Counted from the first letter of the stretch, positions 361-56,764 are shown. The stretch is DNA of 56,958 nt from Bacteroidales bacterium (GCA_009777915.1 WRKV01000001.1:1-56958), one strand, 5' to 3'. Program-made: numbers and translations. The notes: generated by a model not told the origin, from the sequence alone.

Positions 361-395
361 ACGACTATTCACTAATCACTATTCACTAATCACTA
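361..395 (-). repeat. heptamer array TAGTGAT/TAGTGAA (about 4.5 units) starting at the stop codon of the FISUMP gene
   Basis: The minus strand reads TAG TGATTAG TGAATAG TGATTAG TGAATAG. The first TAG is the stop codon at 393-395. Stops occur in all three frames. Confidence 0.7.
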
Positions 396-1343
396 AGGTA
401 CATCCCGCACACAACGCAGGGAACGCCCGTAACCCTTGTTGCCCCAACCCTGCGGGTAGATATGGCCATTTGTATCGAAGGTAAAACGGAACCCAAGATC
501 CGTGTTGTTCTCCGACTGCGACCAGTAGACCTCGCTGAAATCTTGATTGTACAGCGAGCCGACCGAAGTGCAGAGGCCTCCGTAAGTACCACCCCACGTA
601 GTGAGATAGGTGTCAAGTTGAACCTGCCAAGACGTATCATTAACCGTTTCTTGATAACGATTCTGACCGTTAAAACCTAAAGCGATATCCAAGTTACGAA
701 AATCAGCAGAATCCGGAATTCGCCAACCATCAGGACAAATATTTTCTACTTCGGCAACAGCATGCCAAGAAAATAAATCACCTTTTTGGTAGGGATTGGA
801 GCGGCAATCAACATTGTAAGAACTCGTTGTAGAATTCCAACCACTAAAAGTGGCTTTACTACTACAATCAACCGTCTGAACAGCATCCGACCACTCTTGA
901 GTAATACCATTTCCGGGAATTTTCCAAGTGGAATCGGTGGCAAAAGAGGCTTTACCAAGAGATGTCTCCCAAATGGTTTCACTCACGGTTACAAGGCAAG
1001 TGGCGGTTTTTTCACCGTCTTGCGTGATAACAGTAATAGTTGCCGTGCCAATGGCAAGAGCAGTAAGTTTTCCGTTGACAACCGAAACGGTGTTGGGTGC
1101 ACTCGAAATCCACGATACGGTTTTGTTGCTTGCAGATACGGTTTTGTTGGTTATACTGTCGGGCAATACAGTAGCAATAAGCGTAAGCGTGTCACCAATG
1201 TTGAAGATGGCAGCAATGTGGTTCAGCGATACACCGGTAACAGGCACATAGGGTGTTTCTATGCTATTGGTGCTGGGCTCTTTGTCACAAGAAATTGCGA
1301 ATGCAAACGATAAAATCATCACAGAATAAAGGAATTTTTTCAT
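393..1343 (-). CDS. lipoprotein with Big_2-like Ig domain and C-terminal FISUMP (TIGR02145-like) domain
   Basis: 316-aa ORF with a signal peptide and lipobox (SFAFAISC). Ig-like segment VTGVSLN...ATITVITQDGEKTATCLVTV. FISUMP hallmarks CPDGWRIPDSADFRNL and terminal GRSLRCVRDVP. Confidence 0.8.
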   Translation of the reverse strand: MKKFLYSVMILSFAFAISCDKEPSTNSIETPYVPVTGVSLNHIAAIFNIGDTLTLIATVLPDSITNKTVSASNKTVSWISSAPNTVSVVNGKLTALAIGTATITVITQDGEKTATCLVTVSETIWETSLGKASFATDSTWKIPGNGITQEWSDAVQTVDCSSKATFSGWNSTTSSYNVDCRSNPYQKGDLFSWHAVAEVENICPDGWRIPDSADFRNLDIALGFNGQNRYQETVNDTSWQVQLDTYLTTWGGTYGGLCTSVGSLYNQDFSEVYWSQSENNTDLGFRFTFDTNGHIYPQGWGNKGYGRSLRCVRDVP

Positions 1344-1398: not shown

Positions 1399-1585
1399 AA
1401 AAAAAACGGACTTAACAAATCCGTCGCAGAGGTATTAGGAAACCCATATACAAGAATAAGCAAGCCCGCAGTGCAGGCGTTACAGTCTCTTGTATATTCA
1501 GAAATTCCTAATTTTCTACGACAAGAATAGCAACCGCTATATTATATTTTCGTTTATTTCATGGTTTGTTTTTTGGTTAAAATGT
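1399..1585 (-). promoter_or_regulatory. conserved structured 5' leader: mini-ORF ATGAAATAA, long hairpin, intrinsic terminator. Candidate attenuator, riboswitch or sRNA. Copy 1.
   Basis: Homologous to 54915-55108. Helices attaggaa/ttcctaat (1505-1512/1434-1441), atatacaaga/tcttgtatat (1488-1497/1446-1455) and apical gcctgc-act-gcgggc (1464-1478). Terminator acgga...tccgt plus T8 (1399-1424). Confidence 0.65.
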
Positions 1586-1589
1586 TTTG

Positions 1590-1597
1590 CAAAGGTA
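1590..1597 (-). promoter_or_regulatory. Bacteroidetes -7 promoter box TAccTTTG
   Basis: Match to TAnnTTTG upstream of the leader and FISUMP gene. Confidence 0.55.
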
Positions 1598-22837: not shown

Positions 22838-22909
22838 AGGTTCCGAGCGGATTCGAACCGCTGTAAACGGTTTTGCAGACCGCTACCTAAGCCACTCGGT
22901 CACGGAACC
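22838..22909 (-). tRNA. tRNA-Cys (GCA)
   Basis: The reverse complement folds as a cloverleaf: acceptor ggttccg/cggaacc, anticodon loop ctGCAaa, T-loop ggttcgaatcc. Confidence 0.9.
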
Positions 22910-32344: not shown

Positions 32345-32415
32345 CAGGGACAGAGGGACTCGAACCCCCGTCTACGGTTTTGGAGACCGCCATTCTACCA
32401 CTGAACTATGTCCCT
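32345..32415 (-). tRNA. tRNA-Trp (CCA)
   Basis: Cloverleaf on the minus strand: agggaca.../...tgtccct, anticodon loop ctCCAaa, T-loop ggttcgagtcc. Confidence 0.9.
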
Positions 32416-32422
32416 TTATGGA

Positions 32423-32450
32423 TAGGGGCGATGCATGCACCGCCCCTACA
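32423..32450. repeat. GC-rich palindromic element, copy a (TAGGGGCGATGCATGCACCGCCCCTACA)
   Basis: One of four related copies (see 34016, 53524 and 56793). Lies between tuf and tRNA-Trp. Confidence 0.8.
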
Positions 32451-32473
32451 TCACATTTTTATTTTTCGGATGA

Positions 32474-33661
32474 TTAATCCAAAATTTCAGTTACTTGACC
32501 TGCTCCTACGGTACGTCCACCTTCGCGGATAGCGAATTTAAGACCTTTTGCCATAGCGATTTCTGCAATCAAATTAACTTCGATAGTCAAGTTATCTCCG
32601 GGCATAACCATTTCCACGCCTGCAGGAAGAGAAATCTCTCCGGTTACGTCAGTTGTGCGGAAATAGAACTGTGGACGATACTTGTTGTGGAACGGCGTGT
32701 GACGTCCACCTTCGTTTTTACTCAAGATATAAACCTCAGCTTTGAAATGTTTGTGCGGTTTAACCGAACCCGGTTTGGCGATAACCATACCACGACGAAT
32801 TTCGTCTTTGTCGATACCACGCAACAACAAACCTGCGTTGTCACCGGCTTCACCACGGTCAAGAATTTTGCGGAACATTTCAACACCGGTTACAACCGAT
32901 TTGAGTTTTTCTGCACCCATACCAATGATATCAACAGGATCGCCCGAGTTGATAACTCCGGTTTCGATACGACCTGTAGCCACAGTACCACGACCTGTAA
33001 TCGAGAATACGTCTTCGATCGGCATCAAGAAATCTTTGTCAACGGCACGTTGTGGAAGTTCAATCCATGAGTCAACCGCTTCCATCAATTCCATGATTTT
33101 GTCTGACCATTGTGGTTCGAGGTTTAATCCACCCAATGCAGAACCGCGGATAACCGGTGTGTTGTCACCGTCGAATCCTTTTGCAGACAAAGCGTCGCGG
33201 ATTTCCATTTCAACGAGGTCTAACAACTCAGGGTCGTCAACCAAGTCAACTTTGTTCATAAACACAACCATACGAGGTACACCCACTTGTTGAGCCAAAA
33301 GGATGTGCTCGCGAGTTTGAGGCATCGGACCGTCGGTAGCAGCAACTACGAGGATTGCTCCGTCCATTTGTGCAGCACCGGTAATCATGTTTTTAATGTA
33401 GTCGGCGTGTCCCGGACAGTCTACGTGTGCGTAGTGACGAGTTTGTGTTTCATACTCAATGTGAGCTGTGTTAATGGTAATACCACGTTCTTTTTCTTCA
33501 GGTGCGTTGTCGATAGAGTCAAATGATTTTTTCTCTGACAATCCTTTTTCCGCCAATACTCCGGTAATAGCGGCTGTTAAGGTGGTTTTACCGTGGTCAA
33601 CGTGACCAATAGTTCCAATGTTTACGTGTGGTTTATCACGTTTAAAAGTTTCTTTTGCCAT
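32474..33661 (-). CDS. tuf: elongation factor Tu
   Basis: 395 aa. [18 protein letters not shown] and NKVD motifs. Near-universal EF-Tu sequence. Confidence 0.99.
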
Positions 33662-33758
33662 TTTATTTGTTTTTTAAGGTTATTATTTTGTTTTATTGTC
33701 GAGATGCACGATGCATCATTACTTTATTATATTGGTGACCGACCTGAGTCGAAGTCAG

Positions 33759-33830
<72 letters not shown>

Positions 33831-33834
33831 GGAG

Positions 33835-33907
33835 AGCGGAAGACGGGGCTCGAACCCGCCACCTTCGGCTTGGAAGGCCAACGCTCTACCAAATGAGCTA
33901 CTTCCGC
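33835..33907 (-). tRNA. tRNA-Gly (TCC)
   Basis: Acceptor gcggaag/cttccgc, anticodon loop ctTCCaa. Confidence 0.9.
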
Positions 33908-33917
33908 TTGTTGGTCG

Positions 33918-33999
33918 TGGGAGATGGTGGATTCGAACCACCGAAGGCGTCGCCAACAGATTTACAGTCTGTCCCCTTTGGCCACTCGGGTAATCTCCC
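33918..33999 (-). tRNA. tRNA-Tyr (GTA), long variable arm
   Basis: Acceptor gggagat/atctccc, anticodon loop ctGTAaa, variable arm ggcgacgccttc. Confidence 0.9.
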
Positions 34000-34015
34000 A
34001 ACGGTTTTTTTTTGC

Positions 34016-34049
34016 AAGGGCGAGGCGTGCCTTGCCCCTACATTTATCT
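34016..34049. repeat. GC-rich palindromic element, copy b (AAGGGCGAGGCGTGCCTTGCCCCTACA)
   Basis: Sits between tRNA-Thr(TGT) and tRNA-Tyr, inside the tRNA-tuf transcription unit. Confidence 0.75.
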
Positions 34050-34069
34050 ATGAACTATCCTTTTTTTTG

Positions 34070-34143
34070 AGCCGATGGAGGGATTCGAACCCCCGGCCAG
34101 CTGATTACAAATCAGCTGCTCTGGCCAACTGAGCTACATCGGC
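34070..34143 (-). tRNA. tRNA-Thr (TGT)
   Basis: Acceptor gccgatg/catcggc, anticodon loop ttTGTaa. Confidence 0.9.
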
Positions 34144-54902: not shown

Positions 54903-54910
54903 TATCTTTG
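54903..54910 (+). promoter_or_regulatory. -7 promoter box TAtcTTTG (leader plus FISUMP gene)
   Basis: tttttcgtatctttgcaaaaa, homologous to the box at 1590-1597 (minus strand). Confidence 0.55.
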
Positions 54911-54914
54911 CAAA

Positions 54915-55108
54915 AATTTTAACCAAAAACCAATTATGAAATAAACGAAAATATAAATAAACAATAGCGATTTGCTAATTCTTGCTATCGAAAATTACGA
55001 ACTTTCAAACTCACAAGAATAAGTGGACGCCTGCAATTGCGGGCTTATCTTATTTGTGAGTTGGGTTTCGTAATACCTTGATAGCGGATTTGAAAGTCCG
55101 CTTTTTTT
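54915..55108 (+). promoter_or_regulatory. conserved structured 5' leader: mini-ORF ATGAAATAA, long hairpin, intrinsic terminator. Candidate attenuator, riboswitch or sRNA. Copy 2.
   Basis: Mini-ORF at 54936-54944. Helices attacgaa/ttcgtaat (54994-55001/55067-55074), ctcaca..aataag/cttatt..tgtgag (55010-55023/55049-55060) and apical gcctgc-aatt-gcgggc (55029-55044). Terminator agcgga...tccgct plus T7 (55083-55108). Confidence 0.65.
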
Positions 55109-55153
55109 ATTGCCCTAAATCATAAATCATAAAACATAAACCATAAAATACCT

Positions 55154-56764
55154 ATGAAAAAAATCACCCTAACCTTAATCCTTGTCGCAAGTTTTGCAAC
55201 CCAAAGTTTTGCGTATTGTCCTATTCCGCAATGGTGTCCTGACGCCCCTTTGCATCAAATTCTCTGCCCTGGCGAGTCAATAGATGATATCGTATTTCCT
55301 TCGGTAATAGCTAAAACCCTGATCGTCACTTGGTGGACGAACGAGACACGCATCCATTCTTTTGAAAATCCTCCTCCGGGCATCACGGTTTCGGGCGACG
55401 CCTCGACTCCGCTCGGCGACCGGGAATACGCGTTTCCTGTTTCCATTAAAGGAGCACCAACAAATGCCGGCACCTACCACTATACCGTGAGCAATACCTG
55501 CGGCGTAGAGTTACTACACGGCAGCATCACTTTGGCACCACCAATACCTGCCACACCCGGAACCATAGCGTTTAGCAACAATCCTGTTTGCACGGGAGCT
55601 GAGTTTACAGCGAGCATTGCTGCTGTGAGCGGTGCAGCGACCTATAATTGGACTGTTCCGGGAAGTATGACCCACGACGGCAGCGATGGCACCACCATCG
55701 ACATTACCAATGCAGGCACTACAACAGGCAGTTTGGCTATTTCGGTAACGGCAAGCAACGCTTGTGGCACAAGTGCTCCAAGCACGCAAAATATCACCGT
55801 TAACGCAGCACCTACTATCGGCAACGTTACTCCCACAGGCGACCAAACCACAACGCAAAACGTCGCCTTTGCATCTACGCTCACCGTCAGTCCGCTACCC
55901 GCAGGCACTCCAACGCCTACTATTCAGTGGTATTCGAGCACATCGGCGAGCAGTGCAGCAGGAACAAGCGGCACAGCCGTGAGCGGAGCCACAGGCAACA
56001 CTTTCGATCCGCCAAATGATGTTGTAAACACCGACGGTGTATTCTACTATGCAGTAGCAACCAACTCTTGTGGAACGGCAACAACGGCTAATACCAGCGG
56101 AAAGCATATTGTGACCATGCCGCCACCACGCGGCTGCGATTTTGTGAATAGAGACAGTGCAAGAATCCTTTCGGGAGGTCCCGTAACAGATACTGTATGG
56201 ACTATTCCGGCTCGTGCAGGTGTGGCATCGCAGACCTGGTCGGATTTGGTTGTTTCGCCGCAATGCAACAAAACTGCCTATAACGGTGGATCATCTAGCA
56301 ACTTTATTTCGGATTGTAGAAACAACTCTACGCTTGTTGGTGCTACCAATGCGTTTCCGGGGCATTACTTTTCGTGGTGTGCGGTGATGCAGTATGCGGA
56401 TATTCTTTGTCCGGGTGATTGGCGAGTGCCAACAGCTGAGGATTTTCAAAATTTGTTTACGCTCATGGGTGGCACCACCAGTCGCAATCCATCCACAGTA
56501 ATCGACGGTCAATCTTACACTTCCGGCACCAATGCAGCTAATACTGCAGCAACCCACGTTCCTCGTGGCGGAACCTGGGGGGGCTCCCGCTTTACTGCGA
56601 GCGCGAGCTTTCTGACGGATGAGCGTTCGAGCTACTGGTCGTCCTCAGAGCAGAGCATCGCGAATGGGTTCGTCCTGACCTACGCTGGGTTGAGTCTCGT
56701 CCCGTACCACTACAACCCTAAGAATAACGGGTTCGCCCTGCGGTGTGTGAGGGATGTGCCATAG
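55154..56764 (+). CDS. secreted multi-Ig/PKD-like repeat protein with C-terminal FISUMP (TIGR02145-like) domain
   Basis: 536 aa with a signal peptide. Cys-containing Ig/PKD-like repeats (..ATYNWTVPG..ASNACGTS.., ..FYYAVATNSCGTA..). C-terminal CPGDWRVPTAEDFQNL ... NNGFALRCVRDVP. Confidence 0.8.
   Translation: MKKITLTLILVASFATQSFAYCPIPQWCPDAPLHQILCPGESIDDIVFPSVIAKTLIVTWWTNETRIHSFENPPPGITVSGDASTPLGDREYAFPVSIKGAPTNAGTYHYTVSNTCGVELLHGSITLAPPIPATPGTIAFSNNPVCTGAEFTASIAAVSGAATYNWTVPGSMTHDGSDGTTIDITNAGTTTGSLAISVTASNACGTSAPSTQNITVNAAPTIGNVTPTGDQTTTQNVAFASTLTVSPLPAGTPTPTIQWYSSTSASSAAGTSGTAVSGATGNTFDPPNDVVNTDGVFYYAVATNSCGTATTANTSGKHIVTMPPPRGCDFVNRDSARILSGGPVTDTVWTIPARAGVASQTWSDLVVSPQCNKTAYNGGSSSNFISDCRNNSTLVGATNAFPGHYFSWCAVMQYADILCPGDWRVPTAEDFQNLFTLMGGTTSRNPSTVIDGQSYTSGTNAANTAATHVPRGGTWGGSRFTASASFLTDERSSYWSSSEQSIANGFVLTYAGLSLVPYHYNPKNNGFALRCVRDVP

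Follow-up and report, generated by a model that had tools for sequence, protein, structure and literature searches.

The stretch of DNA analysed here, which we refer to as the window (56,958 nt of a Bacteroidales bacterium), contains two copies of a structured RNA leader that constitutes a new, well-supported RNA family without an Rfam counterpart. Its feature set is unusual, a start-stop mini-ORF being combined with a long rod-like candidate sensor and a terminator of invariant sequence. On the basis of sequence and predicted pairing we lean, with modest confidence, towards the leader being a cis-acting transcription attenuator of the ON type that would respond to a ligand or a protein.

The initial annotation of copy 2 held that the gene downstream can only be expressed by reading through a terminator, and all of the features on which this was built could be confirmed. 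Direct reading of the window located the -7 promoter box, of the Bacteroidota type, and ATG-AAA-TAA was found as described in both copies. The AGCGGA..TCCGCT terminator and its T7 were likewise in place, and the spacer in front of the gene, scanned with strict and relaxed patterns, contains no TAnnTTTG box. The two arms that had been assigned to the long hairpin exist, but they are only the inner portion (P2b) of a longer structure, as an outer helix of 8 bp, P2, had been overlooked; P2 widens the hairpin to 54984-55085, and the hairpin therefore adjoins the terminator. The order of promoter, leader, terminator and gene is conserved, the sole recognisable promoter lying upstream of the terminator and the gene downstream of it. 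The features of copy 2 are as follows.

54903-54910, plus strand: -7 box TATCTTTG, read from the sequence
54936-54944, plus strand: two-codon mini-ORF ATG-AAA-TAA in an A-rich initiation context, identical in copy 1
54965-54977, plus strand: P1, a small hairpin UAGC-GAUUU-GCUA, of which AGCG is nearly invariant across the family
54978-54984, plus strand: J, the invariant AUUCUUG, in which pairing of UCU with the terminator GGA is a candidate antiterminator extension
54984-55085, plus strand: long rod-like hairpin, candidate sensor domain, predicted energy −41.7 kcal/mol
54984-54991 with 55078-55085, plus strand: P2, with both-side changes in 6 of 8 pairs
54994-55001 with 55067-55074, plus strand: P2b, with both-side changes in 5 of 7 pairs
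55004-55008 with 55061-55065, plus strand: P2c
55010-55016 with 55054-55060, plus strand: P3, with 15 different complementary sequences
55019-55023 with 55049-55053, plus strand: P4
55029-55034 with 55039-55044, plus strand: P5
55083-55102, with the U-tract to 55108, plus strand: putative intrinsic terminator, an 8-pair stem, 55083-55085 being common to the 3′ strand of P2
55109-55153, plus strand: A-rich spacer of 45 nt up to the start codon, with no promoter box
55154-56764, plus strand: downstream gene for a 536-aa signal-peptide protein with PKD-like and Fib_succ_major (PF09603) domains, from a domain search

Copy 1 lies on the minus strand near the other end of the window and has the same layout.

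1399-1597, minus strand: copy 1 leader, 143 bits with the covariance model described below
1590-1597, minus strand: -7 box
1554-1562, minus strand: mini-ORF
1528-1539, minus strand: P1
1515-1522 with 1423-1430, minus strand: P2
1464-1478, minus strand: P5
1406-1424, minus strand: putative terminator
1399-1406, minus strand: U-tract
393-1343, minus strand: downstream gene for a 316-aa lipoprotein-like protein with Big_2 and Fib_succ_major domains, from a domain search

Pairwise alignment of the two copies gave 82% column identity, with the stems differing by compensatory changes. Each of three conserved blocks was found in the window exactly two times, where 0.00-0.08 occurrences would be expected, and both copies fold much better than their shuffles (z = −6.0 and −6.3). 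Minimum free energy folds also paired the A-rich region around the mini-ORF to the U-tract; this was dropped, being conserved in only the two window copies.

Beyond the window, the family comprises 16 sequences from metagenomes, and the existence of 18 related sequences in total means that the element of the window is not due to chance. Of the 32 matches to a metagenome scan anchored on the 3′ half of the hairpin, 14 were true homologues; the ENA contig L074 carries a leader identical to that of copy 1, and three more diverged leaders (L120, L125 and L130) were found on contigs of homologues of one downstream protein. With a covariance model trained on 15 sequences, true members score 89-161 bits on the given strand and at most 24 bits on the opposite strand; the same model found no third leader copy in the window, and it gave no member in the FISUMP loci L115-L119 or in five viral contigs with a 16-mer in common with the leader. 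A scan of the genome collection with the pattern CGCCTGC..GCGGGCTT..GGGTTTC, which carried the window-specific P5 strand CGCCTGC where most family members have CGCTCGC, gave 73 matches, all of them chance hits in G+C-rich genomes or an unrelated coding region. Related proteins are labelled as 'Bacteroidales bacterium' MAGs in the sources, and the JGI sample series involved are presumably termite-gut metagenomes.

An Rfam scan, which had been proposed together with the initial annotation, gave no match of the leader to any Rfam 15 family (4227 models) at its gathering threshold, and over the whole window these thresholds returned six tRNAs and nothing else. Permissive scans of both copies and 14 homologous loci also left the leader without an above-threshold match. 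Two candidates from these searches were rejected. The L20 leader (RF00558) scored 19.7-28.7 bits against a threshold of 58.7, a match owed to the apical hairpin and the terminator; this RNA is normally found upstream of infC-rpmI-rplT in Firmicutes, and the genes downstream of the present leader are non-ribosomal. The nqrA-II motif (RF04310) reached 25.4 bits against a threshold of 55 in copy 2 only, being absent from copy 1 and the 14 homologues, and its host and gene context are different, the motif consisting of four covarying stem-loops upstream of nqrA in Pasteurellaceae (PMC11109978).

Folding and covariation analysis with more homologues, the other computational step that had been suggested, revealed a heavily covarying rod. 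From 5′ to 3′, the family displays a TAnnTTTG box in most members, a tiny ORF, P1, J, the rod-like hairpin, the terminator and a run of U6-9. In the rod, of about 100 nt, P2 is followed by an AA/ACC internal loop and P2b, then by a short P2c, P3, a GA bulge and P4, with P5 at the apex in the form GCUCGC-loop-GCGGGC; the loop between the hairpin arms is only 3-7 nt long. In the model-fitted alignment, standard pairs occupy 98.7% of the cells, compared to 33-46% when the partners are slid, and a MAFFT alignment, which is not fitted to the structure, still has 97.1% of its cells paired. Changes on both sides were observed in 11 of the 25 modelled pairs. Individual folds gave 15 different fully complementary helices for P3, a helix that the sequence alignment failed to register. 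The P1 helix is weakly supported because L104 and L101 lack it, its AGCG sequence being conserved.

Amid these covarying stems, purifying selection acts strongly on the junction nucleotides and on the sequence of the terminator. UCUUG is found in 17 of 18 sequences (L125 has UCUUUG), and CGGAU/AAGUCCG with the U6-9 run is invariant in all 18, on a stem of 6-8 bp whose foot pair covaries between G-C and A-U. Conserved G-U pairs are present in P2, P5 and the terminator and, together with the strand asymmetry of the model scores, they indicate that selection acts on the RNA of the given strand; the same two observations rule out a DNA-level palindrome, a MITE, an attC-like site or an invertible element. 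Two further complementarities were seen. The reverse complement of J (AUUCUUG) recurs exactly as the conserved CAAGAAU at 55014-55020, in the 5′ strand of P3/P4, and duplex calculations allow 5-9 bp between them in all homologues; the duplex might form transiently during transcription and keep J occupied until the rod closes, or the match may be a coincidence. The invariant 3′ strand of P5, GCGGGCU, is complementary in sequence to AGUCCGC in the 3′ strand of the terminator.

No antiterminator pairing had been apparent by eye in the initial annotation, but a candidate exists, as P2 overlaps the terminator and the UCU of J can pair with the terminator GGA. The end of the 3′ strand of P2 is also the start of the 5′ strand of the terminator, with 2 nt in common (3 in copy 2, 55083-55085). 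Column 147 of the alignment (55084 in the window) has a potential partner in P2, column 30, in 18 of 18 sequences, and one in the terminator, column 166, in 17 of 18. These columns vary in concert, reading U-A-U in five sequences, Y-G-C or Y-G-U in 12, and U-A-C in L105, where the terminator acquires an A-C mismatch. Fisher tests calculated by hand from the counts gave values of ~0.05 and ~0.03, and the three-column covariation is only suggestive, or borderline, because the sequences are related and thus not independent. Between the invariant UCU of J and the invariant GGA of the terminator, pairing would lengthen P2 across a one-nucleotide bulge, and RNAfold selects this extended P2 in several homologues. 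The pairs that are specific to the antiterminator, the G-C pair and UCU:GGA, lie beyond the reach of covariation, since UCUUG, CGGAU and AAGUCCG do not vary.

By calculated energy, the two states are nearly isoenergetic. The terminator stem of copy 2 has an energy of −8.1 kcal/mol, which is reduced to −2.3 kcal/mol when P2 holds the common nucleotides, and across the family the full terminator ranges from −5.7 to −9.5 kcal/mol, against −1.6 to −3.7 kcal/mol with P2 keeping the overlap. When the terminator and antiterminator states were each forced, the two lay at most 2.7 kcal/mol apart for 12 of the 15 sequences. In this pairing model the missing antiterminator is probably P2, the helix at the base of the long hairpin. 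The invariance of UCUUG and of CGGAU/AAGUCCG while P2 and P3 are saturated with changes is what one would expect of segments that have two partners, and a protein that recognises these sequences would account for it too. The overlap between P2 and the terminator resembles the design of an ON-type expression platform, in which stabilising the base of the closing helix would favour read-through.

What the analysis shows is the family with its structure and its location, a terminator sequence that is conserved, the overlap of this sequence with P2 and the balanced energies; that termination takes place, that it is regulated and which way the switch works are inferred. According to the promoter consensus, transcription would begin a few bases past the TATCTTTG box, and the tiny ORF of 2-5 codons lies at the 5′ end. 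The RNA then folds into P1 and the very stable rod of ~100 nt, with its covarying helices and conserved junction, and a short hairpin and U-tract, a putative intrinsic terminator, are directly 3′ of the rod. The outer 2-3 nt of P2 double as the bottom of the terminator stem, and UCU has the potential to pair with GGA. A factor, either a small ligand or a rod-binding protein, may hold the base of P2 closed and so cut the terminator to an unstable 4-6 bp, in which case RNA polymerase would read into the envelope-protein gene and the switch would be ON. Otherwise, the terminator of 6-8 bp would form and an RNA of ~190 nt would be released. We also raise, tentatively and as a rather doubtful extension, that the rod is the aptamer of an orphan riboswitch class, or another direct RNA sensor, of uncultured gut Bacteroidales, through which an envelope signal would block the terminator and turn on dispersed genes for outer-membrane proteins, lipoproteins and secreted proteins.

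The position of the leader with respect to promoters and genes bears on this attenuator and on the RNA being instead a stand-alone multicopy sRNA, in which case the ~190 nt transcript would function in trans or as a protein scaffold and the gene would receive constitutive leak-through. Among the 16 sequences with enough upstream DNA, 12 have a TAnnTTTG box ~75-110 nt 5′ of the conserved core; four lineages (L085/L092, L105, L107 and L130) have no recognisable promoter box upstream, which speaks against the attenuator. An sRNA would be well served by such a strong promoter of its own and by an efficient-looking terminator, and the promoterless copies could derive by processing of the 3′ UTR of an upstream gene. 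The presence of two copies in 57 kb, a terminator hairpin so invariant in sequence that it might be recognised by a protein, and the precedent of a multicopy sRNA in Bacteroides, FopS (PMC11697453), point the same way. Against this, a same-strand ORF starts 16-144 nt past the U-tract in all 17 sequences examined (L084, with too little sequence 3′, was left out of this count), and these ORFs appear to have no promoter of their own, since a strict TAnnTTTG box is absent from all 15 homologous spacers scanned and from three further spacers.

In L099, L101 and L125 the unit of promoter, leader and gene is flanked by opposite-strand genes, and because these bracket the unit, read-through is the only evident route to expression of the gene; several copies belong to such monocistronic units, which tells against a free-standing sRNA. 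In L109, a true DUF805 RNA (RF03081, 73.9 bits) separates the leader from the probable start codon of an OMP beta-barrel gene, so that the stretch from leader to gene is a 5′ UTR. One uncharacterised family of signal-peptide proteins without a Pfam domain (P0121-P0176; L091, L103, L120, L125 and L130) keeps the leader 5′ of its gene or of a two-gene unit in 5 of 5 distinct loci, being the second gene in L130. Furthermore, there is no conserved single-stranded seed of the FopS kind, most of the conserved nucleotides lying in or beside helices. The element has a covarying structured domain, conserved unpaired nucleotides and a consistent location in the 5′ UTR of a same-strand gene, as expected of a transcriptional riboswitch of the ON type. 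We regard the sRNA alternative as unlikely.

The leader precedes at least ten different kinds of gene. In the window the products are two FISUMP lipoproteins, and elsewhere, in addition to the P0121-P0176 family, they are an OMP beta-barrel protein, a secreted trypsin-like protease, a DUF805 membrane protein, a TPR membrane protein and three further signal-peptide proteins; products that are not of the envelope type are a protein with only a LytTR domain, an MmeI-type restriction-modification enzyme and one uncharacterised cytoplasmic protein. The set is strongly biased towards the envelope, most members being signal-peptide or membrane proteins, yet it is heterogeneous and suggests no ligand, which counts against the attenuator. 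The association with FISUMP made in the initial annotation did not hold, as the leader is missing from six distinct places with other FISUMP genes (ten loci), including L075-L077 and L115-L119, to the latter of which the covariance model was applied. Given these places and the many unrelated genes that do have it, the leader is not specific to FISUMP.

A further alternative is a mobile or recombining promoter-leader cassette in which the RNA has no sensory role, spread before surface-protein genes as, for example, an insulator, a processing hairpin for RNase III or a stabiliser of the 5′ end. The leaders of L085 and L092 are identical and precede different, unrelated genes, with a sharp break ~45 nt past the U-tract, which could point to a cassette that spread recently rather than to the attenuator. 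Copy 1 and L074 form a mosaic, with no difference in the leader and roughly the first 400 nt of coding sequence and ~25% divergence thereafter. L075 has a paralogous FISUMP gene with this promoter, followed directly by a short A-rich UTR without the insert, and the near-continuous duplex of ~45 bp in the rod would be a plausible substrate for RNase III. Nevertheless, a terminator between promoter and gene would make no sense in a pure stabiliser, the junction and terminator are held by purifying selection amid covarying stems, and the strand asymmetry and G-U pairs place that selection at the level of RNA. No transposase genes, terminal repeats or target duplications were found, nor any true copy on a viral contig, and we consider a non-sensory cassette improbable. 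A phage or mobile origin was rejected as well, five viral contigs sharing a 16-mer and none being a true copy. FISUMP is a known target domain of diversity-generating retroelements, and such an element was considered for copy 1 and L074, which differ only in the C-terminal domain; it was rejected, as there is no adenine bias and no template repeat in the window.

Almost all homologues have an ORF of 2-5 codons at the 5′ end. It reads ATG-ATA-TAA in L091 and L120, ATG-AAG-TAA in L099, ATG-ACA-TAA in L107, ATG-GTT-TGA in L109 and ATG-ACT-AAA-TAA in L085/L092, and five-codon versions (MINTA or MKKTA) are present in L090, L103, L125 and L130, whereas L105 has no tiny ORF within 100 nt upstream. 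The usual context, aaaaaactATG, is that of real start codons, and the ORF usually begins 23-31 nt past the -7 box. In 6 of 8 promoter-bearing sequences that are independent, the ORF opened by the first ATG is at most 5 codons long, compared to 1.7 expected from shuffles (P = 0.003); the thresholds were set post hoc, and P is ~0.003-0.02 overall against composition-matched shuffles. The mini-ORF looks selected, judging from this enrichment, and its more plausible roles would be to load ribosomes that stabilise the 5′ end, or to end quickly the initiation that an A-rich leader cannot avoid in a bacterium lacking Shine-Dalgarno sequences.

Translation-coupled attenuation, in which a ribosome on the tiny ORF would decide between terminator and antiterminator, had been put forward in the initial annotation and could draw on the occurrence of such ORFs in a start-codon-like context in nearly every lineage, at frequencies above those of shuffles, and on one subgroup in which the stop codon lies inside a small hairpin. 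The encoded peptides vary (MK, MI, MTK, MK, MT, MV, MINTA, MKKTA), and the stop codon is positioned, at variable spacing, 15-40 nt 5′ of P1, the first conserved structure, and more than 120 nt 5′ of the terminator, so that a ribosome at the stop cannot touch the P2 and terminator segments. L105 has no such ORF within 100 nt upstream. This is the least probable of the explanations considered, and a very improbable one.

To our knowledge, few cis-regulatory RNAs have been characterised in Bacteroidota, in which we know of neither Shine-Dalgarno-led initiation nor Hfq, and little is known to us of how their surface proteins are regulated after initiation. One conserved leader before many unrelated envelope genes points to shared post-initiation control of the cell surface in uncultured gut Bacteroidales. 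Should the sensor bind a small molecule, it would be a new riboswitch class, and should it bind a protein, a new antitermination system, while the recurring start-stop mini-ORF offers a handle on how ribosomes treat 5′ leaders without Shine-Dalgarno sequences.

Terminator-containing regulatory leaders are well known as a kind, and four known systems can be compared with the present one. The leader and FopS/GibS are multicopy paralogous RNAs of Bacteroidales with TAnnTTTG-type promoters, intrinsic terminators and a link to outer-membrane proteins (PMC11697453). FopS of Bacteroides thetaiotaomicron is 65-70 nt long, consists only of a single-stranded 5′ seed and a terminator hairpin, and acts in trans on susC mRNAs (PMC11697453). 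Unlike these RNAs, the leader is ~190 nt long, almost fully structured and always directly upstream of a same-strand gene, and it does not have the character of a trans-acting sRNA of the FopS/GibS type.

The leader-peptide attenuators trp, erm and cat also have a short ORF at the 5′ end of a terminator-containing leader. In contrast to theirs, the ORF of the present leader has no regulatory codons and no overlap with the alternative pairing segments, which sets it apart from leader-peptide attenuators. The lambda bar minigene is a two-codon ORF, ATG-ATA-TAA, and the mini-ORF of L091 and L120 is exactly this sequence.

The DUF805 RNA motif (RF03081), a candidate cis-regulatory RNA from Bacteroidales, shares with the leader a location in the 5′ UTRs of genes for membrane or envelope proteins. 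Indeed, in L109 the DUF805 RNA lies ~90 nt downstream of the leader in the same 5′ UTR, and the gene behind the L099 leader encodes a DUF805 protein. The DUF805 RNA is, however, an unrelated structure of 68 nt, and the leader has no match to RF03081.

The pbuE/ydhL adenine riboswitch, of the purine family (RF00167), is a transcriptional ON switch in which the closing helix of the aptamer overlaps the terminator. The leader departs from the purine riboswitch in being a single rod of ~100 nt rather than a three-way junction, in its heterogeneous gene set, which offers no hint of a ligand, in the invariance of its whole terminator stem and in having no Rfam match. Like pbuE/ydhL, it is a 5′ UTR element with a covarying domain, conserved junction nucleotides and a terminator immediately 3′, and its closing helix, as in that riboswitch, has nucleotides of its 3′ strand in common with the 5′ strand of the terminator.

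Comparison of L085 and L092, two contig loci that carry the leader on the minus and plus strand, respectively, showed that their sequences match exactly over a stretch beginning at least 150 nt before the leader and extending ~45 nt beyond its U-tract, after which they run into unrelated genes, encoding a secreted trypsin-like protease in L085 and a 190-aa unknown protein in L092. The identity and the break that follows it suggest that the leader has been recombined or duplicated as a module. At L075 (380-455) and L076 (100-172), a paralogous gene for a FISUMP protein (Fib_succ_major domain, PF09603) shares the promoter sequence (TTTTTTCGTATCTTTGCAG), but only a 45-nt A-rich UTR separates this promoter from the start codon; the structured leader is absent, and the layout looks like an 'empty' version of the promoter-leader-gene arrangement.

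The gene downstream of leader copy 1 in the window (393-1343, minus strand) was compared with that of L074 (220-1158), and the two are 100% identical throughout the leader and for ~400 nt into the coding sequence, while ~25% of positions differ in the C-terminal FISUMP domain (12-22 mismatches per 50 nt). Fib_succ_major has been reported among the target domains of diversity-generating retroelements; no adenine bias was found among the substitutions between the copy 1 gene and L074, and the template repeat of such a retroelement is absent from the window.

The leader also precedes a family of uncharacterised, metagenome-only proteins (P0121-P0176) of ~300 aa that carry a signal peptide but lack any Pfam domain; their gene, or the two-gene unit containing it, follows the leader in all five distinct loci examined (L091, L103, L120, L125 and L130). 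Matches to a further RNA, the DUF805 RNA motif (RF03081), were found at two loci:

L109 787-854, plus strand: DUF805 RNA, a true match (73.9 bits; threshold 51.1)
L086 259-308: DUF805 RNA, a weaker match

In L109 the motif lies ~90 nt downstream of the leader terminator and extends over the ATG at 841, which is probably the true start codon of a gene for an OMP beta-barrel protein; a single 5' UTR therefore holds a tandem pair of candidate cis-regulatory RNAs.

Within the leader itself, the invariant AUUCUUG upstream of helix P2 (window 54978-54984) and the conserved CAAGAAU in the long hairpin (55014-55020) are exact reverse complements of each other, and this complementarity may represent an alternative fold or an intermediate in the folding pathway. 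AUUCUUG occurs twice in copy 1 (1522-1528 and 1451-1457), where the 3' strand of P3 also carries it.

The window further contains tRNA genes:

32345-34143, minus strand: five tRNA genes, including a tight cluster of four at 33759-34143
22838-22909: a sixth tRNA

The group of five adjoins a 395-aa ORF (32474-33661) that is a probable EF-Tu candidate, and the neighbourhood is an ordinary housekeeping context.

The upstream ORF of one leader subgroup (L090, L103, L125 and L130) has five codons (MINTA* or MKKTA*) and lies upstream of P1, with its last codons and stop codon contained in a small hairpin, GCGUAA...UUACGC. In L091 and L120 the mini-ORF reads ATG-ATA-TAA and so matches exactly, in sequence, the bar minigene of phage lambda, a minigene known for peptidyl-tRNA drop-off.
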